A stretch of 62,965 nucleotides of DNA, counting the filler. It is 8 parts of 8 records of this genome, joined end to end, with 100 filler letters (N's around TTAATTAATTAA, not from the genome) between each part and the next. Parts side by side here need not be neighbours in the genome. Positions count along the whole stretch, not along the records: positions 55,166 to 62,965 come from SRR7504441_1453; 7 more parts are not named here. One strand, written 5' to 3'. How positions within the stretch are numbered: the first letter of the stretch is position 1; each line of letters begins with the position of its first letter. The position numbers and the translations under genes are program-made. This document shows positions 17,101 through 62,965 of this stretch, in pieces. The notes beneath the pieces were generated by a model. That model was not told where the DNA came from, did not search any database, and saw nothing but the letters and a program-made list of their open reading frames with translations.

Positions 17101-17370
17101 GGATGCTCGCGGCCTGCTGGTCGCACCCCGGGCTGACCAGCGCCTGCTTGCACAGCTGGATTACCCGCTCGACCAGGGTGTGCTCGCTGTCGGCCAGCTG
17201 CGAGTCCACGGTGGCCAGGTCGAACGGAATCATCACGATGATGGCCAGCCAGATCATCAGCACGTACCGGGTCTCCCAGCCGTGGCTGCACGCCTGCATC
17301 TCGGCCCGGAGCACCCGCTCCACCGGCTCCAGGTCGCTCACCTGCCCCGTCGGTCCGCGCCAGCCAGCGC
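14180..17370 (-). CDS. TBCD: Tubulin-specific chaperone D, 5' truncated
   Basis: WETRYVLMIWL...MIPFDL, DTVCRWSAAKGLGR, WHGACLALGELARRGLL, VRDAACYVCWAFARAY, FDREVNCRRAASAAFQENVGRQG; intron 16616-16663. Confidence 0.95.
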
Positions 17371-17470
17371 NNNNNNNNNNNNNNNNNNNNNNNNNNNNNN
17401 NNNNNNNNNNNNNNTTAATTAATTAANNNNNNNNNNNNNNNNNNNNNNNNNNNNNNNNNNNNNNNNNNNN
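17371..17470. other. Artificial contig linker
   Basis: N-TTAATTAATTAA-N. Confidence 0.98.
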
Positions 17471-17497
17471 ACGGAGCTCAAGACACAAGCTAATCCA

Positions 17498-20400
17498 ATG
17501 GGCAAGAATGCGATTGACAGCCTGCGCGAATGCTTCGCGGCGGAAGATGAGACACTCGCGGCGATTGCTAGCAGACTCGGAGTCGAGCCCACAGTCCTGC
17601 TCGAAATTAACCAACCCCGATATCCGGGGCTCACAGAGCACTCCAAGCTGATTGCTGGCACCTCGATTGTGTACCCCTCCAAATGCCAGAACCAGGCACC
17701 TTGTGAGCAGAGCTTATCACAGAGTCCGCTGTCAAATAAGCTCATCTGCCTCACAGACCACAATGTTCAAGGTTATATTGGGGTTGACGTGTGGGGGAGC
17801 TTCGACGTGTGCTGGTATCTGGGCCAGATCTTGAAGTACGATCGGCATGATGGCACAATCACAGTCCGATTTTATGAAGACGACGAAGAGGAGGAATACA
17901 CCATCGCACAAGCAGCAAGGGATCTGCGGCTTGTGAATCAGAACGGCTTCAAATTAGTAGTGCATGCAGCCAACGACAATGATACTCTTCGCACCATCAG
18001 CGCGAAGCTGTCTTCGAACGCAGATGAGATGATGAGGCTCAATAGGCGCCGGTACCAGTTCTTGACATTAGACGCCAAGCTGGAAGAGGGCACCAGCTTA
18101 CTCGTTCCTGTGTATGGAGACAAGGGCCATGCTCAGCTGCTGTCTCCTCCACATGCTGCTGAGCAGCAGCGAATCCCGGCTCCTTACCCACGGCTTGCAG
18201 GCATGACATGGGATGGCATCTTAGGTGCGCTGCTTGCTTTCCCTGCTATAGCTTTGTTGAGCATTGTTTTGTCAGGAGAGTGGCTGGAGAATCCTGACAA
18301 CTCAGAACAACCTGTGGCGCAGAGCTCGTTTCCACAGCGTGAATGCGGTCTTGTAACTCAAGAGATCGGCCAACCTGCTTGGTTGGCCAGGCAGAAGGCG
18401 ATATGGCGTGCAGCCTGGAGTGGCTTGCCTACACCTGCGTTGTTCTCTGAACCAGGCAAATGCACTGGTTGCGGACACCGGTCTCCTGCAAGCGCGTTTG
18501 TTTGTGAAGCATGTGGCGAGCTCCTGATGGTGGGCACGCGGACGCTGATGAAGCGGCGTCTGCCTCGCGCAGAAACCCCCTCAAGCCAACATGAACCGTC
18601 ACAAGCGCGAAAACGGCAACGCACGGTCGCTCCTTACTTATCAAAAGTGAGAAGCAACAATGACAAAATCAAGGCTGAAAGAGACGCTATGCGGAAGAAT
18701 TTTGTTTGCTTTATTCAAAAACACAGAGCTGTGTTAGAACCGTTTCGAGCAACCATCCCCGACGGCTTGGCCGATGGGGAACTGCCAGTGCAGCGGAAAG
18801 TGGCGCAGCCCTCTCAGATGAAAATGGTGTTGCGCGAGCATCAAATAGAAGGTTTGTCGTGGCTAGTCCACATGTATGAAAATGGCGCCTCGTGTATCCT
18901 CGCAGACGAGATGGGCTTGGGCAAGACAGTCCAGACTATTGCGTTTTTAGCGCATCTTCGGTTTGTTCGGGGTGTGTCTGGTCCGCATCTGGTTGTTGCG
19001 CCACTCTCTGTCTTGTCCACTTGGGTATTAGAGTTTCAACGGGCGTGTCCGGAGCTGACTGTAGTCAAGATGCACTCATCAGATGCAAAGGAGCGCGAGG
19101 AGCTCAGGCGGCGTGTTCTCGAATCTGTTACTGAGGTAGATGTAGTAGCTACTACTTATGACACAGTTGCATCGCCGACGATGCAAACGCTCTTCAGAAA
19201 CACCTGGTGGCGGTATGTTGTGCTCGACGAAGCGCACACCGTAAAAAACGAGAACAGCGCAAAGGCTAAAGCTGTGCGCGGTCTGCACTTCCAATCGTCG
19301 CTGCTTCTGACAGGCAGCTTTGCTAAATCTGACAGGATTCTTACAGTTGTGTGCAGGCACGCCTGTCCAGAATAATCTGCATGAGGTTTATGCTTTGCTC
19401 AACTTCTTGTACCCAACTGTGTTTGTGGATTCATCTGCGTTCGACGAGGGCTTCGACTTAAGGCTTACGCGACACGTAGATGAAAAGGTGCTGGCCGAAG
19501 CAAATCAGCTACTGCAGCCATTCATGCTCCGCCGGCTCAAAGAGGATGTAGAAAAGAAGCTCCCTCCAAAGCTCGAGACTAAAATATTTTGTCATCTGAC
19601 TGAGATGCAGGTGCTTCCCTGCTATGCTTTGCGTTGCCATTAACACCATGTTGTGCTGCAGCGCTTCTGGTACATGCGACTTTTATTAAAGGACAGCGCC
19701 TCTTTAGCACAGCTAGAGGATGACGCTGAGGCGGAGCTGGGGATGTCAAAGAGCACTGGCTGGCGTAAATTACAGGCGCTCATGGTTCAGCTCAGAAAAT
19801 GCTGTCTGCATCCATATCTCTTTGACGAGGCGGACTACAATCCGGGCTGCATCGACGAGGATCTGATCTACAATTGTGGCAAGCTTCAGATCTTGGATGC
19901 ACTTCTTAGAAGGCTTAAGGCGAAGGGACACCGAGTCGTCTTGTTTAGTCAGATGACTAAGATGCTTGACATATTGGAGGACTTCTTGAATCTGAGGAAC
20001 TATGCATACTGTCGCCTTGATGGAAGCAAGTCACGAGTACATCGCACAGTCGAAATCAATTCGTTTAATGATGAAGGCAGTCAATTGTTTTGTTTCTTGA
20101 TGACGACGAGATCTGGAGGGTTGGGCATCAACCTCCAGACTGCTGACACCGTGATCCTGTACGATAGTGATTGGAATCCTCAGCCAGACCTGCAAGCAAT
20201 GGCGAGAGTACACCGAATCGGCCAGACAAAAGTTGTTCACGTCTATCGACTTGTCACACGGGGTACCATTGAGGAGAAGATTGTGGACCACGCAGATAAC
20301 AAGCTGTACCTTGATAAAATGGTCAACAGTAAGCAAGTCACCGATGAGGCCACTGAAGATGACGAGGCCTCCACCAAAGATATGCTCAATGCGCTAAGCT

Positions 20401-20965
20401 TCGGTGCGCAAGCAGTAGCAGGCCTTGACAGCACCACCGATCCACCGACTGATGACGAGTTGGATGCAATAATCAATAGAAATCGGACGAGCAATGAGTC
20501 GATCGGTGATCGACTAGTAGGTGGTACTGAAAACAAGGCTGGAAACTTTGAGGTGTCTGAGGCTAAAGTATCGATCAGGCAGCTAAACGGCAAAATTTAT
20601 GGGCTGGGAGACAGCAAAAAGAGCTGGCCGACCAATGTCGTCGATATCGCAAAGGAATGGGATCTACTCTCACAGGACCGGGTGCGCAAGCGCAAAGCGC
20701 GCACTGAAACCGTGCACGTGGCTGGTGTTGGTGCTGTCAATGTCCTGAAGGATGCAAAAGCTGCAAGAATCGATGGCGATGTGCGAGAGCGACAAAGTGC
20801 GAGGCAGGTAGCAGGGAGGGACTACGAGCACAGCAAAACCTGCCAGTGCTGCTGGAAGGAGGGGGATATGATGATTAAGTGCACGCAGTGTCCAGCTGCA
20901 TTCCATGCGGAGTGTCTAGGTCTCGACAGCGGAAAAGGGCTGAGTCCACTCTGGCGCTGTAGTCA
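17498..20965 (+). CDS. SNF2-family (ISWI/CHD-like) ATPase with N-terminal LysM-like/Tudor-like/LysM-like and Zn-ribbon modules and a C-terminal PHD; truncated at the contig end(s)
   Basis: ILADEMGLGKT, VLDEAH, LTG|TPVQNN, VVLFSQMTKMLDILED, GGLGINLQTADTV, DSDWNPQ, ARVHRIGQ; PHD CQCC...CTQCPAAFHAEC. Introns 18225-18275, 19314-19356 (GC-AG), 19611-19661. Confidence 0.92.
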
Positions 20966-21065
20966 NNNNNNNNNNNNNNNNNNNNNNNNNNNNNNNNNNN
21001 NNNNNNNNNTTAATTAATTAANNNNNNNNNNNNNNNNNNNNNNNNNNNNNNNNNNNNNNNNNNNN
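20966..21065. other. Artificial contig linker
   Basis: N-TTAATTAATTAA-N. Confidence 0.98.
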
Positions 21066-36098: not shown

Positions 36099-39000
36099 TT
36101 ATAGTTCTACTAGTGCCACATCGAGCTTCTTATCACACTCGAATTCGATATCTAGAGTCGACAGCACTTCCTCGTCTTCAGAGGCAAACAAGAGCCTGAA
36201 TGGCGATTCGGCGCTGTTTAGCACCATAGGAATCCGCATGGCGCCTTCCTTCCCGGCAGCAATGTTAGCCACCAGCTCGCCTGATGTGTCTAGAACTGTG
36301 TCTTCCCCCTCGAGACGGAGCATTTTTGCTGTTGACCCTACTATAATCCTCAAATCTGCAGCTATCCCCGTCAGTGCTGAAAGAATCAGTGTGACGGTGC
36401 AGTTCTGTGTTATCCTCAACTCAAGACTCGGCAGATTCGCGAGATGATCGCGAGTGGTGTTTTTCTTGGATGCTCACTACCAACCTGTCCCCAGCTTGTC
36501 AGCTTCCACACACAAAGAAGTGTAACTACCTCTGCCAGTGTGCTTGCCAACCCCTTTGCAAACTCAGCCTCTGCTTGGTTGCCGCGTAAAGGCGCAGCAT
36601 CTGGCTCGACCGGCTGGTGACTTGGATCCAAAGGACCAGTGGCTAATATGTGTGATAATGACAATGCTGGCTCGATCGACCTGCAAGCGCTAGATTAAGA
36701 CACCAAGAGGGCAGCAATGTGGCACCTGCGCAGTATTGGATCGTGCTGGTCCAAACTTGAGCTGAGCTGCTCGAAGTCCTTTGTTGCCGGCAGCTCAAAC
36801 AGGTTGGCAAAGGATCCTTTCAGCTTTGCGAACGCCTTGCAGAGAAGCAGCGGCCAGACTTCAGTCGGATTGCCCATCCTGCCAAACGCGGGTCGCTTGT
36901 TGACACACGGGATGAAGTCATCAATTGTGACTGATACCATCTGGCCATCTCCCCTGCCACTGGGAATGCTGAGCTTATAGCTGCCAGTGAGTGCCAACTC
37001 TGTGGTATTGAAGAATGAGCGGATGGTTTCATCAGACAATGAGCACACTCCGCACCAGAACCACGGCGAGGACATGGCTCCGGGCTCAATGGTATTTTTG
37101 TCGAGCGGTCCATTGAGCATCAGGACCGGTGGTTGGCTGCAGATCTCAGGCGCACGATACCATTGTACATTGCTCCTATCTGCACGCAATGGCTTGCCAA
37201 GGCCCACCAGTGAGACGCCGTTAGGTGGGAACTCAGGATCCACCATCATTGCACTATTATCAAACGCCTCCTTGGTACTAGTTGGCCGCATGCGCATCCA
37301 TCTCGTTGCATCTGGTTGACCCCTTGCCCCGACTGGATCCGAAAACATCGCTCCCAATTCAGCATGCCCGACCTCCTTTGCGAGTGCAACCAAGTCGTGC
37401 GCTTCTGCATCTCCCTCGCCGGCCATCGCGACAAGCAAAGCATGCGCCACAGCGATGGCTCCACATCTTACAGCAAGCTTCAAAGGCGAGTCCCCAGAAG
37501 AATCTACTCCATGCAGTAGTGAAGCGCGTTCCTCGTCACTGTTGCAGGCAGCAAGTATGATCTTCACGCATTCTGCACGCCATGACGAATCGCTATCCTT
37601 CTTGTTTGTCCAGCATCCGAGCCAGTGCAGCAGCGAGCGCTGCTTCAAGTCGACAAACTTGGCTGCCTCGTTGGATGCTGTTAATCTCATCCGTTTCTCT
37701 CTGCCAAAGTATGCCGCCCACCACATGACAGGCCAATTCTGGCAGAGTTTCAGCTTGCTTCCAATCCCGTCGGAAGGCGCGTAGCAGCGTCCAAACAGAA
37801 CATCTGATCCGATCTCAAGAGCTGTAACTATGAGCATGTCATCGTCAGTGAGCCGTTTGGGGTCAACTGCGTCGGCCAGCCGAGCCACCACATCATCAGA
37901 GGCCCCATTTCGCACCGCCCAAGCAATCGGAGGCACTCCGTGGCAGTCCTTGAGCAAAGGATCTGCCCCACAGCTGAGCAGAAGGTCCGTGAGTTCCCAC
38001 TTCTGTGCGCACAGCGCCGCCGTCAGAGGTGTAGAACCATCAACATCCACAGCATTGACATTTGCTGCGGGTCTGGTCCCCAGTAGAAGTGTTGCCATTT
38101 GCACACCCACTTCGTCATTTGCCACTTGAGAACAGCAATGAAGCGGCCGCCATCCAAAAACCCCTTCTGCATCAGGGTTGCATCCAGCCTCGAGCAATAC
38201 CCTCAGCATCAACAGAGACCCAGACAGGGTAGCCGCGATGGCCAGCTCGTCCTCTATCTGTGAACCAAGCTTTGCCAGAGTCGAAACCATTTCTGAATCG
38301 TCGTTGTCGATGGCAACTCTCAGTGCTGTGCGGCCTAGTGCATCAACAGCCTCTAAATCGAACCCTACTGTCACCGCACCCTCACTCTGAGCGAGCCTTG
38401 CAAGTGTCTGAACCAGATTAATCTTTCCATGCTGCGCTGCCATGTGCAGGAATGTATTCCTCTGCGGGCCGTGAATGAGAGACACGTCCAGTGAGAAGGC
38501 AGAGTCTGGTAGGTTGGAGAGCAGCTGATTGAGCACCTGCTCTGGATCTTTACCGTTTTCCTGTGCATGCTCGAATAGCAAGTGTAGCACTGGCTCTCCT
38601 TGTCTGGTGAGCACATCGCCCAAAGCCAAAGCAAACTCAGATTGTGTTGCGACGTTGTCCTGATCGAGATCGACTGCGAACGCATCCATCTCTTCCAGAG
38701 ATAGGCCCAGGAAGAGCTTTATGAAAGGCTCGATGAGGACAGCGCGCTCTACCTCACTTGTAGCTGCCTCAAAGCGGCTCTGTTCCCTCTGGAATACCGC
38801 GTGTACAATTGGGAGTGAACCTTTCTGGATGGCCACTTCCATCAATCCCTTTCCACGGCTCTTCGCGAGAGTGTAATCAACACCCTGCTCAATCATTTTT
38901 GTAAGCACATTCTGAAGCTCAGTGCTGGCAGGTGAGTCAAGTGATGCCTTGTCATACTGTCCTAGAATCTCAGCAAACATCGAGGGTTCAAATGAAGCAC

Positions 39001-42000
39001 CATTGCCAATCAGCGCAGCCATGGCCCTCAACTTGTGGTTGTCATCATCCATCTCGAGTACAACCGACAGTGGAGTTTTCCCATTGTACTTTGCATTTGC
39101 ATCCTCCTTATGCTTGAGCAGCTCTTCTGCTATCGCAAGGTACTGGTCTGCCCAGTAGGATGACTGAAAGACACTGGTGCTTGTCCTGCTCAGCTGTGCA
39201 GGAACATTATTGGTAGCCATGAGCGGCCCGTAATCCTGAGCCTGGACTAAACCAGGAAGCGCTACATGCAGTCCCTTGCTGCTGCTTGGTCGAACGCCGG
39301 TTGGCAGCAAAGCAGAGACCACTCTTGATGTGCCTATTTTGATTGCCTTGTCCATGATCGTTGTGTATTCCTTGTTTGTCATGTTGCTGTCCTTTACGAT
39401 GTTTGCAACAAGCTGATCAACAACCTGAGCATTTGCAATCAAATCTTGAATGTGATCTGTATCAGCAGAGGTAATCTGACTGAGAGTCGGAGCCTCTGCG
39501 AGGGACATCAGTGCTAGCGTATCCTCTGCATTCATCTTTTGTCCAGCCATGTCGACAACCTTCTGCGCGATGTCTGCCAGCCCTGCCATGATGGCCAGAA
39601 CCAATACAGTGTGATCAGCATCTGGTGGAGTGTCAGGTCCTGCACCTTCGTTTATGAGCTGCAGCGCCATTGACTCCAGGTAGCGCCTGCGCTGCTTTCT
39701 GAGGAGCCTTGCAGCAGCCTCGGCGCCATGCTGAGTTGTGACCTGGCCCTGGTAATGCACGACAGTACCAGCCTCGTGAATGATTTCAATGGCCCGCATC
39801 TCAAAAGGATCGGCCTTATCTTCCTTCTTGACATACCTTTCAGAGAATGGGTAGTGTTGCTGATGTGTCTTAGGCTCAATCTTAAATTCAACTGTGATGA
39901 GACCTTCCTCCTCAACAGCCTGCGTCAACACAGTCTTTAGCTGGGCATGCCAATCAGCAAGAGAAATTGCTCCAATTGGGACTGACGGCCTCTGTCCAAC
40001 AGCGAATTTGCCCATCTTGATACAAAGGATGGTCATACGAGAGGCATCAACGTCGAGATTTAATGCTGTTGGTCGCTCTCTGACTGACCTCTTGCGTGGA
40101 GGGCTCACCATTCGTGGAGCAAGCGAGCTGAATCCCCTAACATCCTGTATCTTCTTCCATGATCCTGCCTTTGGACCTTTGGCCTCCTTGTGTTTTAGGC
40201 CTTTGATCACCTTACTCTGTGCAGAGTCTTCCCTTTCCAAGGTCTCGGCCTTTCCTTTGATTTGCTTGGCTACATTTTTTGCATGCGTCATCTGGATTGC
40301 CGGATTGATATGCACAGAGTCCCTGTCAGCCGAGGCAACGTAAAGCTCTGAGAGAACTGCATGCAGAGGGAATCCCTTGTTGTCTCGGGGGGAGGCACCA
40401 CCAAGCTTGAGCAACCAGACCACATCATCGTCCCCAAGCACACAGGCCAGGTCAAGTGGAAGGTAATGCCGCACCCCACACTGTTCCACGTTGCCTTGCT
40501 CGACCACATTTGCGCCAGCCTTGAGCAGTGTGTCGAGTGCATCCTGAAGGAACTCCCACTGCATGAATCCACGAGGCGTGCCGAGCATCCGCACCAGCAC
40601 GAGCTGAAGCAGGCTCACGTTGTTCACACGGGCGCCTGCAGTCAGGAGTACATTCAACAGCTCGTAGTTGTTGCTCTGAATTGCAGAGTGGATTGAAAGC
40701 ATCTCTTGGCCATCATTAGGATCCGAAATATTTACATTTGCGCCTGATCCGATTAGCCGGTTCACAACGTTCACTTGTTCCTCTGCAATTTGTGCCGCTA
40801 TCAATGGAGTGCTTGCTAGGTTCTTCCTCTCATTTGTGGTCGTGATGAATGCTGGCAATAGCCCGACTGTTGACGAGGCACTGACACCTCGGTCCAGCAA
40901 CGAAAGGATCAATTCCACCTCTCCCTCAAAGCATGCCCTGCGCAGCAGTGACTGCCCTTGCAAGCCGTCTGCTGCGCCTGGCTGGCCAAGCTCGGCTAGA
41001 TCTTTTGACATGTCTTTGAATACAGTCAGAGCGAATTCGCCGAGCCCTCGAGCACGCATGGCCTCAGCAGCGCCTGAGAGAGCAGTGTGCTGCCTCCTAG
41101 CTGCACTTGGTCTGGTAGCTGGGTCCACCTGCATCTTTGCTCGCTGGATCACATGCACAAGGACGGTCTCCAGTAAATGAGCTGAGCCCTGCTTCAAATC
41201 TACGACACTCTGAGCCTCAATCAGTTCGGCATCAATCCTCAAGGCTTTGACCTTGGCAGCATCGTATGCTTCTGTGGCCTGACGTAGCGCCTCCTGTACT
41301 GCCACTACGCGGATCTGTGAAGGCTTCCATGACTTGCTCAAATCTTTGGCCCGGAAGTCGGCTCGCTTCAGAGCACGCTCTGCTGTATCCTTTGCAGCAT
41401 GTGCTTCGGGCTGCTCCTCTTTCAGTCTCTCAAGTCGGGCGAGCGCGTCCGCCTCGCCTCCCGAGTGAGCCTGGACCAGCTTTGTGACAAGCACATCGAC
41501 AGCTCGCTGCTGACAGCCCAGCCGCACCAAAGGGGATGAACCCAGAGTCAATTCAAGGAGAAGCTGCTCGTCTTGAGCCTTCAGGGCAAGCTCAAGAGCC
41601 ATTGGCGGCAGTCCATCAATCACAGAGGTGGGGTCGGCCCCTTCGGTGAGCAGAGCTGTCATGGCTGCCCGGCAGAACGCAATTTCGGCCGGATCGCTGC
41701 CTGCAATCAGCCTTTTGACAGTCTCGAGCAGGCAATTGTCCAAGTCGGCAGTCTCACAGCCTTTGGCAACCCAGCGGAGTAGCTCTGTTGCCGAGGCTGC
41801 AGCAATAGTGACAGCGGTCTCGTTCTCTGGGTCCACCAGCCGAGTGCTTGCCTGCTCTGGAGCATACACATTGATTGCGTAGTGATACACCAGGCGAGAG
41901 TAGCGCAAGGCCAGGTCTAGAATGTCAACCTTAAGTGTTTCGACTACTGCTCCTCTCCTCAGCCTGGCTGTAGCCAAATAACGGGCTGCCATGTCGACCT

Positions 42001-45000
42001 CACTTGGGTTCTCTGGATAGCTGCCAAGATCAGCGGCTTTCATTAGCCACTCCTTGTCTGGCTGAAAGTAGCCCGCTCGCAATTCTGTGGAGCTGCCACC
42101 TGGTCTGTGTACTTCAGTCTTTCTTCCCTCGGACTCGGCCTGCTCGTACATGAAGCGATCCAGCCGCTCTTCTGCATCTGCTAGCCGAAGTGAAGGCAGC
42201 CTCGGCTCGGTTGCGCCTTGAAACGCCACCTCTGCTAGTTTGCCAAGTATCTCGAGGTCTTCAAAGGTGGGTACTGACGATACATCCTTGGCCAGCTGTT
42301 CTCGCCTGTCTCGGAGCATTTCGAAGGCTAGCTGCTGCCGTGTGCCTGAAAGAGTTTCTTCAGCTCGCTGTAGTTCGCCAGCAAGCTCTGCTCGGAGCAT
42401 CTCGAGCCTTGTACGGGAATCATGAGACGCTTCAACAGCTGAAACAAGATTGATGAGCGCCTCAATTGCAACTCGCCACACATCAGCTGCATCTGCACGC
42501 CGCGCAAGGGCTGCAGTTAGCGCCACCGCCCTGCATGCCACAGCCCGTTCAAGGATAGGTATTGAGACAGCTGAACCAGACACCACCAGCGCTTCGCCAA
42601 CCTGAGAACACCAGACGGCTCAGAAACAGAAAAGTCATGTGATTAGCTACTATCGACAGCTGTCGACACTGTACGACCCTCGTCGACACTCTAATACGAC
42701 AGTTAGTCGACACTGCGACAGTTGGTCGATATTACGACACTCGTCGACACACAGGGACACACGAGGCGACTGATTGCAAAGCAAAATCAAACGCGAGCTG
42801 TGCAACACCCCACACACGGTGACTGGGGTTCTTATGGCACATCCCTCTAACCCTGTGCACTTGAGGAGCACCTTCTCTAGACGCATGCGAGCCTCATGAG
42901 TTGGACCGTCTGAAAGCACCATGACCACCTCAGCAACTACCTCTGACAGCTCAACCATTGCTACCTCCAGCCTAAGGTTTGACTTGGGCTGCGGATGCTC
43001 AGGCATCTGGCGCCACACCATGTTGGCACTCACATCGAACGCTGGGTCCTCCACGGCCTGCTTGATCAGCCGCTCTGCAACCAGCGTGGTACTGGCAGCA
43101 CCCAGATCTGGGTGGAAGGCTACCAGCCGCACACTGGCAACTGTGATATGAGCTCCACAGTCCAACAGCATTGCTATTGCATCATGCGATGCACTATCTG
43201 CAGCAAGCATCAATGGGGTCCTTCCTGCATCGTCCAGCGCCTCCATGCTTACACCAACAAAAGCGCCAGACTCGGCTGAATGTGGCCTTCCTAGCTCAAC
43301 GATCTTTTGGATCAAACTGGGGAAGTTATGCCGTGCTGCCAGATGTAGAAGCGTGCCTCGTTCACCGCGAGCCTCGCGCAGGCCTAGATTTATCATGCGG
43401 TGCCTGGCAGCCATTGCTTCGAGCACAGCAATGCACGAGCCTTCAGGAGTGCTCCCATGCTCAAGCAACATGTGCAGCACAGCAACCCCAGCCTGGAGGA
43501 AGAGCTCAGCAATCGCCACAGCGAAGTCGAGCTGCGCTGTGCTTGAGTCCTGGCTGAAGTCTGCTGCAAATGGGGAAGCCTCACCATCAAGCAGCGAGAG
43601 AAACAGAGTCACAAACGGCTCAAAGACCTCGGCATGCTCGCCAGCTTTGCCAAATGCGTTGACTGTCGACTTCTCAGCCTCATAAGCTGCCTTGATGATT
43701 GGCAGTGAATGCAGCTGCAGCGCCCAGTCTAGCAGGGACAGGCCTTGGACCTGCACAAGAGCAACCTTAAAGCCGAATCTAGCATGTGAGCACACCTTGA
43801 GCCTGAAGTCGACCCCTCGCAGCACCATGCTAGCAAGGGTGTCCTCCAGGGCCCGATGTCGCACTGGGTCGGAGTCACCAACAGCAATAAACTCTTCTAG
43901 AGTCTTGGATAGATCAGCAGATGAGAAGTTTGCACCAGACTTAACGAGAGACGCTGCTTCTGCTGGCAGGGCAAGCAGCCGGCCCATTTGTTGGGCATCA
44001 GCCTGCTCTGCGAGCGCAAGCTCGAGAGGTTTTGTGCCGGCAAGCGGAGCATTGGGGTCAGCGCCGGCATCAAGCAAGGCTTGAGAGATTAGCTTGCGTT
44101 CTTTGTTAGGGCACTGAGATATCTGTGCCAGGGCTGTATGGAGCAAGCTTCCCTCAGCACGAGCTCCCATGCTCAGTAGCTTCTGCACAACTGGGAGGCT
44201 GCCAGCGACAATGGCACACTCGATCATCTTGGTGAGCACATCATCAGACAGCGCGTCTTGATCAGAAGAGTTTAGATCCGACAGTCCAGAGAGCACAACT
44301 GCTTCAGCGAGGCTGTCGTCCATTACTGATCTGGTCGGGTCTGCCCAGAAATCGAGCAGGTTGACCACATTTAACAGATCATTCGGGCAAAGATAATGGA
44401 CTACATCGAGTGTTGGCTTGATTCCAGATGCTGCAATCAGTGTCGGTGTCGACTGCTCACTGAACTCAGCAGGTTCAGAGGCGATCTCAGGCTGCATCAC
44501 AGGGGCCTTCATTTGGCAGAGCATCTTGGTGAGATCATCCAGGTACGAGATCCGCGGCCCGACCAGCTGGCAGATAGTTGCGGCTGGCAGCACATGGCAT
44601 GTAATTCTACCAGCACGCAGTTTTGAGTCCTTCCGCCGGGCCATCTCGGCCAGCCTGCATTTGAGTTTATGCAGCTCACCCTTACCTGCCAAGTGGTCCA
44701 CTCCTTGCACCGATAGCTCAACAACCACTCCGTCGTCCTCTGGTGAGATCCCAGCATTGGGGTCAAATATTTTGGCGATCCGGCCTTCAGAGGAGAATCC
44801 AGCACCTCGCCACACCAGCTCAGCTGTCGCATTCCGGTCTAGATGCTCAAGCATGCACTCGAGCACAGCATCGCCATGCCGCTGCTTGATAGTCCCCAGA
44901 AAGTCTAGCCAGCTCGACAAGCACACAGTACCGTCGTGCCCAGGCACCAGACCCGCAAGCAGCCCCTCCCGATCACCACCATGCACCCCGACTAGATCTT

Positions 45001-46135
45001 CCTTGTACACAGCATCGATTGCTGCCACTGCAAACTTCTTGAAGAAGCCTCGCGCATTGTCATCCTGCGCGCTGGACAGCCCACGCGTTGCGGCAGGCCT
45101 CCCTGCTTGACTCGACGGCGCAGACTTGCCCCAGGCCCTTGCATTCCTGTTCAGCTGCCAGAGGAACAGATTGGTAGGCTTGTCCCCAAATTGTTCCTTG
45201 AGCGATGCCACAAATGCGATCCAGTCGCTTGCCAATACGCGGTCGTTGCTGTCAGATCGCAGAGCATCAAAGAACTGTGGGGCTGACCCTGGGCTGCCGA
45301 GCTGCGTGGCACCCAGCGCGGTGAGGATCCCATCGGGGTCCCCTCCAAACACAGCCATCAGCTCACTCTTGGACAGCGTGGTCTCGCCCTCGACTAGCAG
45401 CTCAAACAAGGCCTGAGCAGTCCGACGCTGCTGCTCAGAGAGCAGAGCTGAGGCACGTGAAGCCGTCCGCCGTGCTGTGAGTGCCCTCGAGTTGCGCACC
45501 AGGTGCCGGAGGAACACGCTGAGCACCTTCTCACCTCGGCTGACCTTGATCGCCACCACAAACTTGTTCCATTGGGCAGGGCTCACCACGCCGTCCTGCT
45601 CGTCGAGCTTGCTGAACAGACCGGAGGCATCACCGCCATGCAGCGCCACCATCGCATGCTTGTCAACCCTCCGCTTGTGGTCTGGGTCCATCACAGCGTA
45701 CAGCCCCTCCGCCGCCTGCTGCTCAGCAGAGGTGAGTTGGTTGGAGAAGCTGAGTTGCGACAGCGGCTCCTTCACTCTCCCAACTGTCACCAGGTGCGCT
45801 GGTAGTTCCAAAGCCACAGACACGTCGCGAGCCACGGTCGACGCAAACTGCTGTCGGGCCAGCGAGCCAGGGTGGCCCATGTCCACCGAAGGGTCCAGTA
45901 CCAGCATCACAGGAGAAGCGGCTCGCCATCCCTCGCTTGGCGCCACCTGATCGCTGCCTGCTGACGCAGACTGCCTGTAAAGCTCAGCTGCGACTGCGTG
46001 CACCGGCCGGCCAGCGTCCAGCTGGGCCCCGGCCAGCTTGAGCAGCCACACAATGTCGCTGTCGCCCAGCGCTAGCGCCAGATCCAGAGGCAGGTATCCG
46101 TCAGGTCCCGGTGTGTTGACATCCGCACCGGCCTC
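36099..46135 (-). CDS. Giant (>3200 aa) ankyrin-repeat / EF-hand-like / coiled-coil protein with a degenerate calpain protease domain; 5' truncated; 3' end uncertain (36416 or 36099)
   Basis: ORFs 42650-46051 and 36695-42586 join in frame via intron 42602-42817; many ankyrin motifs (GRTPLMLA, GWRPLH, GSTPL); calpain DPEFPP...VQWYR...VTIDDFIPC...EVWPLLLCKAFAKLKGS. Confidence 0.85.
42651..42780. repeat. Intronic low-complexity array of (GT)CGACA(C) motifs
   Basis: About ten CGAC cores, e.g. TGTCGACACT, CGTCGACACT, AGTCGACACT, CGTCGACACA, inside a 216-nt intron. Confidence 0.75.
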
Positions 46136-46235
46136 NNNNNNNNNNNNNNNNNNNNNNNNNNNNNNNNNNNNNNNNNNNNTTAATTAATTAANNNNNNNNN
46201 NNNNNNNNNNNNNNNNNNNNNNNNNNNNNNNNNNN
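46136..46235. other. Artificial contig linker
   Basis: N-TTAATTAATTAA-N. Confidence 0.98.
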
Positions 46236-55165: not shown

Positions 55166-57265
55166 CTTGCCTGGTCAAAGATGGCGACTCCCGTCCTGCA
55201 GGCCTGCACCTCTTGCGCCACACTGCTGAACGACCCACCCCATCCGAACGTGCACTCGTCCTCAATCAGGCCGAGATACTCGGACGGCTGCTTCTCTGGC
55301 GCCACGATGTCCAGCCCACTCACAGCCCCCTGCTCGTGATAAGCTCCATACCAATCATACTTCTGCGGCGGCTCGGCCTGGCTGTCACTCACAAACCAGC
55401 CTGGCCGCTCGAACCCATGTCGGCCCTGGAACACGCAACCAGCTGCCAGCAGTTTATTATACAGCGGAGACCGACGGACTCCTCGCCCGGCTAGATGCTC
55501 GTCGTGGGGGAACACAATGGCGTAGGTCTTGGCGTACGATTCGTGCGAGGAGTGGTTGATCCAGTCCTGGTTCTTGGTGCACTCGGGGTGGAACCTGGCA
55601 ACATCCATCATGAACAGATCCTTCTCAGGAGCCCCTTGCGTGATCCACACCGCCAGCTGCTGCCCGACACCTCCGCCAAGCATCATCCCCATAGAATTAA
55701 ACCCGGTGCAATGCCACAGTCCATTCAGCGCCGGGTCGGGCCCCACAAGTGGCAGGTGGTCAGGTGTGAACGCCTCTGGCCCGCAAATTGTTGCTTTGAT
55801 CCCTGCCTCGGCACTCAAAGGACACCGAGCCAAATGGCCTTCGTAGTTCTGAGCAAATGTGTCGAAATCGAGATCGAACAGCCCGAAAGCGAACCCGGGG
55901 TCCACCTGCCATCCTGAGGCTTCAGCGGGCTCAAATCAAGCAGAGTAGCTTACTTCAGGCCAAAACTCTGGGTTACGCTCGTACCCTCCAAGCGCCCTGC
56001 AACCGGTGAGTCCATCGGCCAGTTGGAGGCGGCACATCGAGTCGCCCTGGGTCTTGAGGTAGACGGAAAGGTCGTGGTCGCGAACATTCGGCAAGTCTGC
56101 GTGCATCCCCTGCGACCGCTCGTATCGGCGGCATGCAGGCTTTACCTCCAGTGATTCTGTGAGTACCATCGCGTGCTTCATGGCCACCTGACCCGGGATC
56201 GGTCACGCCCCCGGCCCAGATGCCACCAGCGGCAGCCTGCGCGTGCCTGCCATCTCCGGGATCTCATTCGCCCACGCCCCGGCTGCATTCACCACCACCT
56301 GCGCCCACAGCTCGGCCCGCCAGCCCCGGCCCAGCCCGCCTGGGTCTCCATCCGCTGCCCGTCCTCAGTGATCACCGCGCAGATCCGGCCATCCGACCCG
56401 AATTCAAACCTGCCACCGCTCGGACAGGCCTGACCTCAACCCAATTGGAAGGGCACCCAGACACTGCAGTCTGCTCCGCAATCCGAGCGCCCTTCTCCTT
56501 GGCCGCCCGGGCGTACGCGCTCACAATCCCAGTGGGGTCGATCGACCCGTCGCTCGGCGAGTATAGAGCGCCTGAGTCGCACGGTGAGCACACTAGTCGC
56601 GGCGGCGGCGGTATGCCTGTGATGTCTTCTGTCGATAGGAGCGGGTGAACGTCGTTCACTTGGCCCGGGGCCAAGATGTGACTCTCAATCCCGTAGTACT
56701 TGCCCAGCTCAGACAGCCGGCGATACTCATTCAGCCGCTCCTGCCCCAGGCTCGCCCCGGGTCCGGCCCGGCACGACGCCTCGGTGCAGGCTATGAAAAG
56801 TCCGCCGTTCTCTCTCCAGGTCCCGAACCTGCCATAATCGACCAGGTGCCTAACCGGTGCGACACCCGGTGCTCTGCTGCAGCTCGATGCACTTCTCGCG
56901 CGTGTAGCTGTGCAGCTCGACAGAGACGTGCGACGGCCGGAGCCGCCAGAGCATGCCGGCTGAGTGCCAGGTGGTGCCGGCGGTGAGGTTGTGCCGCTCA
57001 AGCAGGACGGTGGACACCCCGGCCTGCTGCAGGTGGTACGTCACGCTCGCGCCTGCCCCGCCGCTCCGCCGCAGCCGGGCCCGCAGCACCGAGAGAGCCG
57101 CCCCCGATCACAACCGCGTCGGCACTGGCCGGCAGCCTGCATCGGAGGGCTCAGCGCTCGGCTGCTGGGCGAGGGGGCGCACTGGGGCGGGGCGGCATAG
57201 CTCCGCGCGGCGCTGGCCGCCCGACGAGGCCGACGAGGCCGAGAGAAGCCCAGCCGCCTCAGCAT
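55166..57265 (-). CDS. SARDH: Mitochondrial sarcosine dehydrogenase (GcvT/DAO family), 3' truncated, ~11 introns
   Basis: Arg-rich transit peptide; [72 protein letters not shown]. Confidence 0.9.
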
Positions 57266-57635
57266 GTTGCCGGCTTGAGATGCGGCGACGTCTGTTCCAC
57301 AATCGAGCGGCTCTCATAGTCCGACGGCTTTTGTGGCTCCACGTGGCTCTGATTGTGACTCTAATTGTGGCATGCTGATGGGCTGACGGGACAAGCACAC
57401 GCCCCCACCGTAAGGTCCTATCCGCGGGTACGAGGATAGACGGTCAGATCTAATCACTGGATTCGCATTCAAGCAAGAAAACCGCATCTTTACTGATTTT
57501 ATATGTCGGAGTCAGTCGGACCGTCTTGAGGTTTAGAGTTGGTCCCTTAATGTTGATCAACGAAGCCATTTGGACCTAGTACCAACCCTCTGTATGAAAT
57601 TGTATTATTGTACAGTGTCTTTTCACGCGGCTTGG

Positions 57636-58245
57636 TCAGAAGGCAAGGTTGTTGTACCGCCGGAGGAAGCTGTGTCGGATGTTGTCCTTGGTGTCGGCCT
57701 GCGCCGCACGGCCGTGCAGGAACTCGTAGCCTTTGGCCGTGTGCGCGTCCATTCCGTTGCGCTGGGCGATGTAGCTCATATCCCGCATCCGAGTGTCCCG
57801 CACCACGTTTGCCGCGGACAGGTCGTTGGCCGCCTGCCCCCCATTGAGCCCTGGGGTGCCGGCCCCGGCCACCTTGAGCGCGACCACGTGCCGGGCCATG
57901 GCCGATTCGATGTTGGCCTTGCCGTCGGGGCAGGATGTCCGTTGGTGCAGGAACCCGAACCCGTTGGCCTTGCTCGGCTCCATCCCCTGTCCTTGGGCGA
58001 TCTCGACCAGATCCTGCGGCCGCCGCCTGAGCATGCGAATGGGAGGGGGGGGGGGCGTAGGGGGAGAGTGTCATGATGCGGGGAGGGGTTGCCTGCATGG
58101 CGAGGGTCTTGGCCTTTTTTATGGTGAGCTCCTTGGAGGAAGCCTGGGGGAAGAGTTTGGCGTACTTCTTGTTGGCGGGTATCGCCGGTCGGACCAGCGC
58201 TTGCGCGGAGGAAGCATGGCGGACCAGCGCTAGACGCCCCGACAT
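57636..58245 (-). CDS. Small hypothetical protein with an internal repeat (G.E...A.GF.FLH.R twice), possibly mitochondrial
   Basis: MSGRLALVRHASSA start; a GC-AG intron at 58014-58092 joins it to DLVEIAQ...; repeat GMEPSKANGFGFLHQR / GMDAHTAKGYEFLHGR. Confidence 0.55.
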
Positions 58246-58404
58246 GCTACTTCCACCCGGGGATCTGCAAGGATCGAGCCGCTCCTCCTCAGGGTGGTGG
58301 TCCTCCTCTGCCTGTTCCTTTGCTTGACAGCCCACGAACCTTCCAAGCAGCTTGGCCAGCTGCAGCTGCTGCCAACGGAATCATAACGGACGCGATCCCT
58401 CAGG

Positions 58405-59497
58405 ATGCAGAAGCAGCTCCTTCTCCTTGTGGCTCTCGTCGGCGTGCTGTCGGCCCGCGGCTGCGACGTGGGCTATGACTTTGGTCCGTGGCGGTCGGCC
58501 GAGGCCACGGCGCTCTCAGTCAGGCTCACCTGGTGCCGCAGCGGGCGGCGGAGGGCTCACTGGGGACACAGGTGGACTGTGCAGCCTCAGCCCAAGGCCA
58601 ACGTGTACTTGTCCACCGCCACCGGCACCGCGTGCAACTCGGGCTACTTCGGGGCCCAGTACCACCCGACCTCCCAGTCCGTCCTCTTCTCGATGTGGGA
58701 CAACCCGCAGAGGGTTGGGCTGCAGAACCACAGCCAGTTCAAATTTCAGGCCCTCCCCGCCGGCGGTGCCGTGAGCGGGCCAGCCCGGGTGCTCACGCGG
58801 GCCAGGTAATTGCTGGCGGAACGCACTGGACGCCTCGGGCAAGTCGACCGGTGTGCAGTGCGGCCAGCCCTGGCCGCACAACCAGTCTGCCAGTCAGAAC
58901 ATCAGCCTTCAGCTCGGGGTGCCCTACGAGTTTCGGATGGAAATGACATACACCAACGCGTCCGGAGCGCTGTGGGAGGTGAGCATGCACGATCCGACCA
59001 ACGGACACTCCACCTCGGTCGGAAAGATCTTCTTTGTGGACCTGCCTCTCGGGCTTCCGACCAGCTGCCGCGCACTCGGGCAGTCGCAGAGCCCGCCGAC
59101 CCCGGGGCTGTCCTCGTATACATTCTTGGAGTACTACAGCCCGCCGTTCGATTACACCACGGTGGCCAGCTGGAGCAACTTTACCGCGTTTTCAGCCAAC
59201 GGGACCGAGTACCGGCCTCGGGATATCGTACAGGACTGCTGCGGTCGGACTTATGGCCGGCCACCCACCGGCGGATTCCTGGACACCTCGCGCCGCTGCC
59301 TGCCGCCCGAGTGTGACCAGCTCGAGCTGACGTTGATGTGCGGTCCGTATGTGCAGCCGTCCAAGTCGGCTCTTGCGGCCAACCCAAGCTGTCTCAAGCT
59401 GCCGCCGGCCGGGCAGCTGGGCGGAGCCCGCAGGATGGACGACTGCTGGGCGAACGGCCCGCCTGCCTCGCTCGATCAGTGCTTCGCTCGACAGTGA
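58405..59497 (+). CDS. Secreted Cys-containing protein, DUF3472-like
   Basis: Signal peptide MQKQLLLLVALVGVLSARG; SGYFGAQ...VLFSMWD; C.....G..TGVQC; SYTFLEYY; one or two mini-introns. Confidence 0.6.
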
Positions 59498-59868
59498 TTC
59501 CTAGTATTGAGGTAGAGCTACGTACACATTATATAGATAGTCGCGTAGTCGCAAGGCACTGATGCGACTGATGACTCGAGGACAATCGGTGATATATCGG
59601 TGATCATGATAGGCGTCGATGATAGGCGATTGTGTAGAAAATTTAGCCGATGGTTTGTGAAAATGTCAACGATAACTGTTGTAAACGGTGGCGCGACGCG
59701 TTCAACCGTTGTAATTCTATACTGGTACTGATATAAAGAGCTCTAATATTATAGCTAGCGGTTATTGCTGGCTACATGTACATCTCGGGCAGATCAGAAG
59801 GAATCATGTAGCCATAATTCCTGCAATAATGCAACCTGTTGTAGGGCACCGGCTGCCACCATCCGAAC

Positions 59869-60347
59869 TCAGCACCTAGCCGCGGCCCAGGCACGCACCC
59901 TATCCCACGCCGCGTGGATTCGCTGCACTAGGGCGGCCACCCGCGTGTTTGGGCTCGCGTAGATCGCTTCCACGTCCATCGCCTCCCTCACCGGAGGCTG
60001 CATTCGGGATAGCCCCAGTCCCAGCCCCAGCCCGCCTGGGCTCCCTATCCGGGACTCGATCAGCATCCGAGTGCCGGCCACGCGCCGTCGATTGGCAGCT
60101 TCCTGGATCTGCCCTCAGGCTCAGCCAGCGACGCCCTCCAGCTAGCCACCCGGTGCTTCTGCCTGCGCCGGTCCGCAGCCGCGCGACAGGGGAGCGCCTT
60201 GCCCTGCTTGGGCTTTGGGGGCGCCTGTGTCCGGCTGGGTGGGCCGGTTGGCTGGGTCATCTCGGTGGGGGCGGTCGGTCCCAGCCCCGGGGGCACCCTT
60301 GGAGGGCCGCTGACGGCCGGCGGGGGCCCGGTGCGCGGCCGCTGCAT
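59869..60347 (-). CDS. Hypothetical protein (start 60347, or 60425)
   Basis: Typical mini-intron 60109-60149 (GT...CTGA...GGCAG) joins ...RRRQKHR to IQEAANRRR...AAARC*. Confidence 0.45.
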
Positions 60348-60423
60348 CTCTACCGCTCCTTCTTCGCCAACCGACAGCCAGTGGCCGCCAATAGCAACGT
60401 GCCGGGGGGCCCAGTCATAGGCC

Positions 60424-61423
60424 ATGGATCCGCCCAAGATGGTCCGCCGGTCAAAGCGGCTGAGGGAGCAGCCAGCCGTCTCGCCCGAGTGCAAGCGCCC
60501 CCGGGCCCGCAAGCGCGCCAGCTCGCCCCGCGCCCCGCGCAAGGGCCCGAGCCCCAGTCTGTCGCTCTCGGGCAACAAGTCCCGCAGCCTCTCGTGCTCG
60601 CAGACCGCCATGTCCCGCCGGGCCAACCCAGGGCCCAAGGTCGACCCGGTCTGCCCGCTGAGCGCGCTCTGTGGAGACGCCACCGTAGCCGGGCCCCAAG
60701 ACGACGACGAGGACGGCCGGGCCTGGAGCGTTACGCTGCAGGACCGGGCGGCTACCGAGTGAGTGCCGCAACCGGGGCGGCTGACCGGTCACAGGTTTAC
60801 GATTATGCAAGTGCTTGAAGACTTGCTGTGCAACCCGCCCCGATACTACTTCTGGACTCGGTGGACGGTTGGCCGCGCCCGGGCTCACAGCTGGGGTGCA
60901 GAGTGGGGTGCTTTGGGGAGAAGCGGGCCAAGGGCACGCACCATCGGCATGATAGCCTAGAGGCTGCCGTCGCAAGCTTCGCACAGTCCTACAAGGAGAA
61001 GGCCGGTGTGGACTGGCCGGAGAAGCCTTCGTTTGATGGCGAGGTGCTGCACAATAGTTACAAAGCGGAACGACGCCCCAGCCCGCGCCGTAAGTTCACT
61101 AGCCCACGTGATGGAGGAAAGAAGTCGGCGGTGACTGAAGAGGAGGAAACGGAGTACTACGGGTGCAGCGCCCCCGAGTCGGATGATTGGGATGGCTTGA
61201 TGAAGGTAGAGCTCTGGGCCGCGCTGGGCTGAAGTAATCGTTGTTGCAGTTGTACGCCAAGCCCAAAAATATCAAGGTGACTGTGCTGCGGGATTGCGGC
61301 CGGGTGAAGCTCAAGAAGGGGAGTGTTGTGCTCAAGGAGCACACCATCCACTTTCTGGCGCGGGAGCCTTTGCTAGAGAAGCTGGTGAAAGAGGGGGCTC
61401 TCAAGGAGCACTTTGACGACTAG
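60424..61423 (+). CDS. Basic N-terminus, WGR-like domain and GINS Psf1 C-terminal (B) domain fusion; three introns
   Basis: VDPVCP...WSVTLQD...FTIMQVL...YYFWTRVG..G...SLEAAVASFAQSYKEKAGVDW; PKNIKVTVLRDCGRV...GSVVLKEHTIHFL....EKLVKEGALKEH. Introns 60759-60794, 60860-60901, 61206-61249. Confidence 0.75.
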
Positions 61424-61604
61424 CGGGCTCGCACACTTGGGCTAGACCACACAAATTGTTCAGCCTTTTGTATTATTAGCGTAACACACAATCGTATTTA
61501 ATTAAATCACAGACGTACCGTACTCCATAATAATTATTATATAGCTTTGTATGTGCACAGCCAACGATTCGCTTGCACAGCCAATTAGCATCATAGAATT
61601 AGAA

Positions 61605-62923
61605 TTAGTTCAATGGCATCCGAGCCACACCAACATCATAGCCGCCGCCTTCGATGCCTGGCACTGGTGGATCAAAGGTCTTTTGAAAGGCCATCACCAG
61701 AACGTTCCCCCCTGCACCATCAGGGGCAACCACCGCATCAGAATAGCCGGCCCCCCCTGCATAAACCCTGTCCACAAACTGCCAACTGTCACCACCATCC
61801 AGTGACTGATGCAAAGTGTAATTCGAGCGGGCGCCGGTGACATTCCCAGGCTTGCTCCAGTACATCTTGTTGCTCAGCTTCGGGTCGGAGCACAGTGCGT
61901 TGTCGCAGGTGGCGGCTGCAAGATCAGGCTGCCGATTGTTGGCTCCCACGGGGTCTCCCGGTACACCGCCAGTAAACCAAATCTCAGCCCACGACCTCCC
62001 TCCGTCATCGCTACGCGCGAATCCTCTGTGCCGGCCACAGGACGCGCTCGGACCGAAGTAGCAAGACTCGACTCGCGAGGCCATCAGCAGGCTCCCGTTC
62101 TGCATCTCCGCAATCTGACACTCGGTCCAGCTGGCCGGGAGCAGCTGCCCCATCTGCCAGCTCAGCCCGAGATCATCCGTGTACAGCACAAACGAGCGCA
62201 TCCAGTCCGACGAGTTGCCCGGGTGCCTGGCGCAGTCAAACCGCCTAGCGTACGCTAACCGGCCGGCGTATTTGCCTCTCTGGAGCTGAATACCGTGATT
62301 CAACCCGCCCCCAATGCTGCCCCCGGGCCCGGTGAGCCCCTCGCCGCCGGGGAGACTCACTAGTGCGGTCCGACGGAGTTGTTCACCGCCACCGGCCGGG
62401 GAGCCGACCAGGTCTTGCCATCGTCCCCTGAGACCGAAAGCCCGCCCACACACCCGGCGAGCTGCTCAGGGCTCGGCTTTTGGGCCAGCTGGTCAGCCCA
62501 GATCGGGCTGCCGCCTTCGGGCGGGCCGGCGGGCCGGGCGAGGGGCCCGAGCAGCCCGCCGGAAGCCGCTGTCTTGTTGTCATAGGCCACGAGCATCAGG
62601 ATCTGCCCGCTGCTCTTGACGTAGGCCGACTGGCCCAGTCCGTGCGGCAGGTCGATCGGCGGGCCCCAGGTGCGCAGCCCATCGCGAGACTGGATCAGCG
62701 TGGTGAACGGGGCTGCCCGTTGCTGGTCGCCGCCCCGCTTGCACATGCCGTACAGGAGGGTGGTGTTGCTGTTGGTTGTGAGCAACATGGGGCACCACCA
62801 GCTCTGGCAGGAAGTGCCGTTCGCCCGCTTGTCGCCGGGCAGTGGGACCGTCACCGGCAGGTCAGCCATGCTCAGCTCCACCAGGACCGGCAGCCACCAC
62901 ACGCAGCGCGCCAGTCGAGCCAT
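61605..62923 (-). CDS. Secreted BNR/Asp-box sialidase-like (GH33) protein, one intron
   Basis: Five Asp-boxes (SRDGLRTW, SGDDGKTW, TDDLGLSW, SDDGGRSW, SLDGGDSW), GIQL..G...GRL, TECQ, GAGYSD; intron ~62317-62360. Confidence 0.85.
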
Positions 62924-62965
62924 ATAACGGCCGGCGCAGCAGCTGCCCGGACGGCGCATGCACCC

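Follow-up and report, generated by a model that had tools for sequence, protein, structure and literature searches.

Does a single gene join a domain that recognises DNA breaks to a docking module of the replicative helicase? Both domains have been studied in detail, each of them in a single fixed setting. The WGR domain is the break-sensing input of PARP1, PARP2 and PARP3, whereas the Psf1 B-domain is a flexible arm with which GINS locks onto Cdc45 and to which Pol epsilon is recruited. We asked this of a gene at positions 60424–61423 (+ strand) of a 62,965-nucleotide (nt) stretch of DNA, referred to here as the window, in which eight parts of eight records are joined by filler letters; the gene, which we call the chimera gene, lies in the last part (55,166–62,965, from SRR7504441_1453). 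The window consists of gene-dense eukaryotic nuclear DNA with 56.7% GC. The source of the chimera gene is a compact marine microbial eukaryote, and the gene is nuclear, transcribed and spliced. Of the explanations considered, the best one overall, which we hold with somewhat better than even confidence, is an expressed, non-enzymatic chimera of 292 amino acids (aa) that would combine DNA-binding and docking roles. Its four-part architecture (basic N-terminus, WGR-like domain, linker and Psf1 B-domain) is in itself quite probable.

No single reading frame is open throughout 60424–61423. When four exons are joined, a coding sequence of 879 nt (292 codons) that ends with a TAG stop at 61421–61423 is open in the spliced-frame check, and this frame appears only once all three introns are removed. 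The removed pieces are 36, 41 and 44 nt long and have GT..AG borders in all three cases. A preliminary description of this DNA had proposed three mini-introns, a protein of about 290 aa and a gene split over four exons that is missed by raw open reading frames (ORFs), all of which agrees with the model obtained here. The start ATG at 60424 lies in a Kozak-like context (GCCATGG), with an in-frame TAG immediately upstream (60418–60420). As a frame argument, distinct from the RNA evidence below, we enumerated all GT..AG pairs that leave the frame open. Intron 1 has four frame-keeping solutions, among which the 36-nt one, with the consensus donor GTGAGT, is the sole short option; the three alternatives are 93–150 nt long and each deletes domain sequence. 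Intron 2 has 13 frame-restoring solutions, and the 41-nt one recreates W-T-R-V-G and is close in size to the other two introns. For intron 3, three solutions keep the frame. In exon 1, GC content at third codon positions (GC3) is 0.90 in the proposed frame, and the alternative frames have 0.67 and 0.64. Over the whole chimera gene GC3 is 0.79, compared with 0.55–0.58 in five large genes sampled from the window; a local compositional outlier was ruled out, as adjoining 400-nt bins likewise have 60–72% GC.

Seven RNA runs are listed for the window, small shares of which are contained in four marine (meta)transcriptome runs (X1–X4) from three studies. Six RNA contigs were placed on 60200–61700. 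Three of the four runs (X1, X3 and X4), which belong to two of the three studies (P1 and P3), have contigs with the joint between exons 3 and 4. The joint (61203>61248) skips 44 nt with GT..AG borders and, with the cut moved by +2, is exactly intron 3. Contigs of the same three runs cover the exon 3 stretch 60917–61203, with two contigs spanning 60917–61094, and a contig from run X2 spans 60405–60564, start codon included. The contigs reach neither 60565–60916 nor 61309–61423, which is neutral for the gene model. The splicing proposed in the preliminary description is therefore backed by RNA at intron 3, whereas introns 1 and 2 are without RNA cover. That description had also named, as the observation that would speak against it, transcripts that lack a join between the last exon and the WGR exons; the transcripts join exon 4 to the WGR-like exon 3, and this favours the model. 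Two other candidates were rejected with the same joint: a gene on the minus strand, since the GT..AG joint lies on the + strand, and a separate gene consisting of the last exon. Coordinates of all features are collected in the table.

Features of the chimera gene and of one further gene of the window (positions along the whole window)
Feature	Position	Strand	Description
Exon 1	60424..60758	+	Codons 1-111 plus 2 nt; basic, S/P-rich N-terminus with KRPRARKR-type stretch
Exon 1, start of WGR-like domain	from ~60640	+	VDPVCP, AWSVTLQ
Intron 1	60759..60794	+	36 nt, GTGAGT..CACAG; inferred from frame
Exon 2	60795..60860	+	22 codons; central strands of WGR-like domain, ends ..YYFWT plus CG of R codon
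Intron 2	60861..60901	+	41 nt, GTGGAC..GTGCAG; splits R codon of W-T-R; inferred from frame
Exon 3	60902..61205	+	Second half of WGR-like domain (VGCFG.. helix SLEAAVASFAQSYKEK.. GVDW) to ~61016, then mixed-charge linker
Intron 3	61206..61249	+	44 nt, GTAGAG..TTGCAG; skipped in RNA contigs
Exon 4	61250..61423	+	Psf1-type GINS B-domain, 57 aa, plus TAG stop
Tubulin-folding cofactor D (TBCD-like) gene	14180-17422	-	Two ORFs

The C-terminal module was identified by profile, sequence and fold comparison. The 57 aa of exon 4 match Pfam PSF1_C (PF24997) with an E value of 9.3e-9 and 35.2 bits over profile positions 5–52 of 54, above the cut-off of 27, and the ORF at 61238–61420 scores 34.9 bits with the same profile. 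In a phmmer search of PDB sequences, all four matches of exon 4 at E<=10 were PSF1 (Xenopus, human in two entries, and Drosophila), and exon 4 aligned to PSF1 residues 147–192 of 196, that is, to its last ~46 residues. We also built a profile (A1) from exon 4, two relatives described below and P0006, a canonical Psf1 fragment with Sld5 and PSF1_C domains; PSF1 accounted for seven of its nine matches among PDB sequences. AlphaFold2 (AF2) modelled exon 4 from a four-sequence alignment with a mean predicted local distance difference test score (pLDDT) of 83.6 and a predicted template modelling score (pTM) of 0.59, as four strands, a helix and a strand. With this model, ranks 1–13 in Foldseek were chains of 193–204 residues from Cdc45–MCM–GINS (CMG) or replisome structures, with query template modelling (TM) scores of 0.63–0.82 and a probability of 1.00; their E values were 2e-3 to 6.5e-2, none of them <=1e-3, for a query of only 57 residues. 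The chains named as PSF1 are 6xtx_A, 8ouw_A and entry 7pfo, and the remainder were taken as Psf1 by length and entry. Archaeal B-domain chains (5ghs_D, 5ghr_D and 9moj_D) were also among the Foldseek rows. By sequence and predicted fold, exon 4 is a Psf1-type GINS B-domain, as the preliminary description had proposed, and the PSF1 profile match for which it had asked is present on the last exon.

The assignment of the preceding domain draws on pieces of three exons. Pfam and fold scoring for WGR was done with single-exon pieces only, and the half encoded by exon 3 lies in one frame. For residues 1–46 of exon 3, WGR (PF05406), the family proposed in the preliminary description, was the sole Pfam match (E 0.011, 16.3 bits, profile positions 42–78 of 79), and longer exon-3 pieces scored 13.9–14.4 bits. 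The match coincides with the C-terminal half of the profile, exactly the part expected from exon 3, and the missing half is present in the right order in exons 1 and 2. Splicing produces the motif F-W-T-R-V-G across the exon 2/3 junction, in which the W and R of W-G-R are kept and the G is changed to T; intron 2 splits the R codon between CG and A. The signature had previously been read as RVGCFG, which is off by three residues: the spliced sequence is ..YYF-W-T-R-V-G-CFG.., and only the G is changed. In hhalign, WTRVG was placed on the bacterial sWGkvG and A-W-S-V on k-F-W-e-v (P 0.067). By eye, the order AWSVTLQ..F-I-Q-LED..W-T-R-V-G..helix..EK-G--W parallels the WGR segment of human PARP3, which runs F-I-Q-L-D..R..W-R-V-G-G..EK..W. 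With residues 1–50 of exon 3 as a query of the ESM Atlas, used as a lead only, the nearest named clusters were WGR at 0.83, 0.80 and 0.79, and all of the ten best named clusters were WGR. The WGR fold consists of a five-stranded sheet and one helix, and the AF2 prediction of exon 3 alone has a helix at residues 19–34, the place expected for the WGR helix. The domain is thus likely to be a divergent PARP-type WGR, in a W-T-R variant, encoded over three exons.

The remaining parts of the protein are compositionally distinct. Residues 1–80 hold 20 K+R versus 4 D+E together with 27 S+P, with an isoelectric point of 11.8, in line with the Arg/Lys-rich N-terminus described earlier; this region is probably disordered. 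The linker (residues 173–235) had been described as acidic, which applies to its second half; its first half is basic, and the linker as a whole is mixed (11 K+R versus 14 D+E). We scanned for further domains in the exon pieces and in 83 stop-to-stop ORFs of at least 45 aa from 55.8–61.4 kb, a subset of the 103 listed between 55.8 kb and the end of the window. Within this scope we found no Sld5/GINS A-domain (PF05916), no PARP catalytic domain (PF00644) or helical regulatory domain, and no other DNA-repair domain, so that the preliminary description was right in giving the gene neither PARP catalysis nor a GINS A-domain. Because it has no N-terminal helical A-domain, through which the GINS tetramer is built, the chimera could not be one of its subunits. 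Neither a further copy nor a canonical Psf1 turned up when the window was searched; the A-domain part of P0006 gave no tblastn match in the window.

We then looked at the conservation of the B-domain. A HMMER scan of 1.84 billion representative proteins with exon 4 returned five matches at E<=1e-3. Two are relatives of the chimera, P0003 (103 aa, 57% identity over the B-domain) and P0005 (168 aa, 49% identity); a third is P0006, and the remaining two were rejected as unrelated. The chimera, P0003 and P0005 have 22 of 57 B-domain columns invariant and share the subfamily motifs L-Y, at the start, and REPLLE. P0005 also aligns to the linker of the chimera as far as the 3′ boundary of exon 3 (E 0.016), and it has 18 extra residues between this alignment and L-Y. 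L-Y is immediately preceded by a Q in each of the three sequences, and in the window this Q is the CAG of the acceptor. Both relatives are singletons on ENA contigs of 1202 and 1232 nt. Because the Q before L-Y fits a CAG acceptor and P0005 has the 18 extra residues, we infer that P0003 and P0005 may be unspliced ORFs on short eukaryotic contigs, with an intron at the same place as in the chimera gene.

One conserved surface of Psf1 differs in this subfamily. In excerpts of PMC7762974, V161, F162, I163 and D164 of the yeast Psf1 B-domain are called 'highly conserved', and changing them to alanine strongly impairs binding of the Dpb2 N-terminus. These residues, which are the site of the psf1-100 allele, are located before strand 1. 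By sequence alignment they appear to correspond to L-Y-I-E in human, Xenopus and fly and to L-F-V-Q in C. elegans and P0006. At this position the chimera has K-N-I-K, P0003 has E-K-I-T and P0005 has K-T-V-T, with a 2-residue gap in the alignments.

A number of results weigh against the interpretation given so far, and they bear on different parts of it. Those on the WGR-like domain would be explained if the gene were a paralogue of the Psf1 B-domain, acting as a decoy or regulator, whose N-terminal two thirds are not WGR but largely disordered, with a chance profile match. Nowhere does WGR exceed the curated threshold: the 16.3 bits of exon 3, as a single-exon piece, stay below the Pfam cut-off of 22, so that the WGR domain proposed earlier is supported below threshold. 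The score alone is near noise, since three apparently spurious matches in the scan of 83 ORFs had similar E values (0.006–0.022). The exon-1 and exon-2 pieces alone had neither a Pfam nor a PDB match. In PDB phmmer searches the 46-aa piece had one irrelevant match, and exon 3 had six matches at E<=10, none of them a PARP; an NCBIfam search for WGR support gave nothing relevant. The best ESM Atlas score (0.83) is below the 0.9 level, and exon 4, a well-supported B-domain, found only phage hypothetical clusters at 0.81–0.83, which is noise. AF2 models exon 3 poorly on its own (pLDDT 60.7). Bacterial WGR profiles, for which E. coli YehF and its relatives supplied the sequences, fail on the chimera. 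Against the spliced protein, a 55-sequence profile gave negative domain scores, hhalign with 12 sequences gave P 0.067, and the 12-sequence hidden Markov model (HMM) gave 2.2 bits, equalled or exceeded by 51 of 2000 shuffles; the alignment of 12 bacterial sequences from which the 2.2-bit profile comes (A3), compared with exon 3 alone by hhalign, gave P 0.17 in the wrong register, although A3 detects human PARP3 at E 3e-6. These profiles are narrow, with an effective sequence number of ~1.2, and their failure therefore weakens the WGR call without refuting it. Against a chance match stand the sole Pfam hit on exactly the expected half of the profile, the ordered presence of the other half in exons 1 and 2, the W and R recreated by splicing, the ten WGR clusters of the ESM Atlas and the placement of the predicted helix. 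We consider a B-domain paralogue without WGR improbable.

The scarcity of relatives raises another explanation, that of young, lineage-restricted exon shuffling of a PARP2/3-like piece with the last PSF1 exon, leaving a gene with little or no function that may be decaying. Only two fragmentary relatives were found among ~15 billion proteins, both of them singletons on contigs of ~1.2 kb. Searches of protein collections for longer relatives gave none for exon 3 (78 candidates, none at E<=0.01) and none for exon 4 (139 candidates). Among JGI metagenome contigs, 122 pattern matches led to a single locus (L001) and no full-length relative, and none of 64 pattern matches in viral contigs was confirmed. 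L001 was rejected as unrelated: its positions 455–571 have only an LRDCGRV-like word in common with the query (residues 4–35), in prokaryotic or phage-looking DNA. Decay would also fit the degenerate WGR motif and the loss of the Dpb2 motif, whose first two residues are absent from the chimera and from both relatives and whose fourth is K or T in them, as well as the low word depth of the RNA contigs (2–5.4) and a nonsense variant. Four differences from the window were seen in the RNA contigs: two are synonymous, one is D204E, and a C>T at 60984 in run X3 turns codon 162 from CAG (Q) into TAG. The X1 contig reads C there. As the stop is seen in one of the two covering contigs, at depth 2, it may be an assembly error; it may also be a segregating null allele. 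Pointing away from decay are the identity and invariant columns maintained among three diverged B-domains, the Q before L-Y at the same place in all three sequences, a frame that is intact across four exons, and transcripts in three independent studies. On balance, recent shuffling without function seems unlikely, if less so than a B-domain paralogue without WGR. A further explanation concerns the 5′ part of the model, which could be wrong upstream of 60917, so that the product would consist of exons 3 and 4 only or would have other 5′ exons. Introns 1 and 2 lie outside the stretches covered by RNA and were derived from the frame, no RNA contig extends over 60565–60916, and the GC-rich 600 nt upstream (59.8–60.4 kb) have no assigned role. 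However, the ATG is included in the RNA contig at 60405–60564, a stop immediately precedes this Kozak-like ATG, intron 1 has its consensus donor and is the sole short frame-keeping solution, and GC3 in exon 1 singles out the proposed frame. A wrong 5′ model is, in our estimate, very unlikely.

What might an expressed WGR/B-domain chimera do? In PARP2 and PARP3 a basic N-terminal region and the WGR domain together form the DNA-break-binding unit. We equate W589 of PARP1 with the tryptophan of the W-G-R motif. According to excerpts of PMC8150716, W589 is the main DNA contact of PARP1 and stacks on the 5′ strand, and in PARP2 and PARP3 the WGR domain mediates binding to 5′-phosphorylated breaks. 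By analogy, the chimera would be nuclear and would bind DNA, most likely nicks or ends, through its basic tail and WGR-like domain, and it would have no catalytic output of its own. Its B-domain would serve as a protein-docking module. The relevant part of PMC10899662 describes the Psf1 B-domain as flexible in free GINS and packed on Cdc45 in CMG, and the N-terminus of PolE2/Dpb2 (aa 1–75) as binding mainly to the Psf1 B-domain. The preliminary description had suggested an adaptor or decoy that recruits Pol epsilon or CMG partners to breaks; loss of the Dpb2 motif in the chimera speaks against the Pol epsilon form of this proposal. A Cdc45-like or lineage-specific partner is at least as likely, and we place the binding of such a partner, or competition with Psf1 for it, ahead of direct recruitment of Pol epsilon. 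An adaptor or competitor mechanism of this kind is a tentative proposal that we regard as rather doubtful. The more specific version, a silent sensor of nicks or ends whose Psf1 B-domain mimic docks on, or competes for, a Cdc45 or Pol epsilon surface at damaged templates, we regard as improbable. If true, it would give a marine protist group a direct physical link, independent of poly(ADP-ribose) (PAR), by which the recognition of strand breaks bears on whether the replicative helicase is assembled or arrested.

Each half of the chimera resembles a known system and departs from it. Like the B-domain of Psf1 (GINS1), exon 4 keeps the RDCG/KDYG turn, the HFL-R motif and the G-L-E end. Unlike Psf1, the chimera has no A-domain, is 2 residues short at the L-[YF] before the first strand, has K/T for E/D/Q, and belongs to a subfamily with REPLLE, a motif one residue longer than the corresponding stretch of canonical Psf1. 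With PARP2 and PARP3 it shares a basic N-terminus followed by a WGR-like domain that keeps the W and R of the motif. It differs from them in the G to T change, in a WGR match below threshold and in having neither the helical nor the ADP-ribosyltransferase domain; as there is no catalytic domain, DNA binding by the chimera could not be converted into a PAR signal. WGR without PARP catalysis also occurs in E. coli YehF, in Bacteroides Q64V53 (PDB 2ra8) and in small eukaryotic ESM Atlas clusters. The bacterial proteins, however, are of a shorter type that is not detectably similar to the chimera, and in the bacterial WGR set Pfam finds only PF05406 in 55 of 55 sequences, with no GINS B-domain. 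A B-domain that acts as a docking module is known from archaeal Gins51, which in the available part of PMC9023282 docks the Cdc45 homologue GAN and the N-terminal domain of a polymerase small subunit; the B-domain of the chimera is attached to a WGR-like domain whereas that of Gins51 is attached to a GINS A-domain.

No protein search returned the WGR and B-domain architecture, and in the literature searched, which did not extend to supplementary files, we found no mention of WGR together with Psf1. What is new in the chimera is the way in which two known modules are combined; it is represented by one window and by two fragments that share its B-domain. The gene, the exon 3–4 junction and the B-domain are firmly established, the WGR domain is probable, and the function is conjectural. 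A natural protein that couples WGR and the B-domain without an enzyme and without the rest of GINS would lend itself to testing whether the B-domain can be a portable docking module and whether WGR can serve purely for targeting. If the chimera binds Cdc45 or Dpb2, it would point to a PAR-independent route from strand breaks to the replisome. If it is inert, it would still be a clean case, supported by RNA, of exons shuffled within the compact genome of a protist. Genes of this kind are invisible to gene callers that do not consider introns, and the database relatives of the chimera are probably unspliced fragments.

The long ORFs elsewhere in the window carry BEACH, tubulin cofactor D, SNF2, carboxylesterase, ankyrin-calpain, UCH and BNR domains. 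Genes of the window other than the chimera gene need short introns as well. The TBCD-like gene is a local example in the same genome: only three GT..AG solutions (48, 57 and 66 nt) bridge it, all from the donor at 16663. Next to it, two long ORFs at 17423–21017 (+) form an SNF2-family helicase gene with a PHD finger at the C-terminus; its N-terminus has weak LysM-type matches (E 8.5e-5 and 4.3e-4), and LysM would be unusual on a chromatin remodeller. At 36695–46183 (-), ORFs of 1177 and 1974 aa lie ~30 nt apart and carry ankyrin repeats and a calpain protease end; a mini-intron within a single gene probably separates them. Close to the chimera gene, a GC-rich segment (~72%) of 600 nt at 59800–60420 separates an AT-rich spacer (59500–59800) from the start codon. 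This segment has long open frames on both strands with no Pfam match, and it may be a 5′ untranslated region, a promoter or an unrecognised gene. On the 3′ side the chimera gene is followed by an AT-rich spacer and then by a convergent gene at 61605–62965 (-), which encodes BNR/Asp-box (sialidase-like) repeats and runs off the window end. Since its repeats lie in two overlapping frames, this gene, too, contains an intron.

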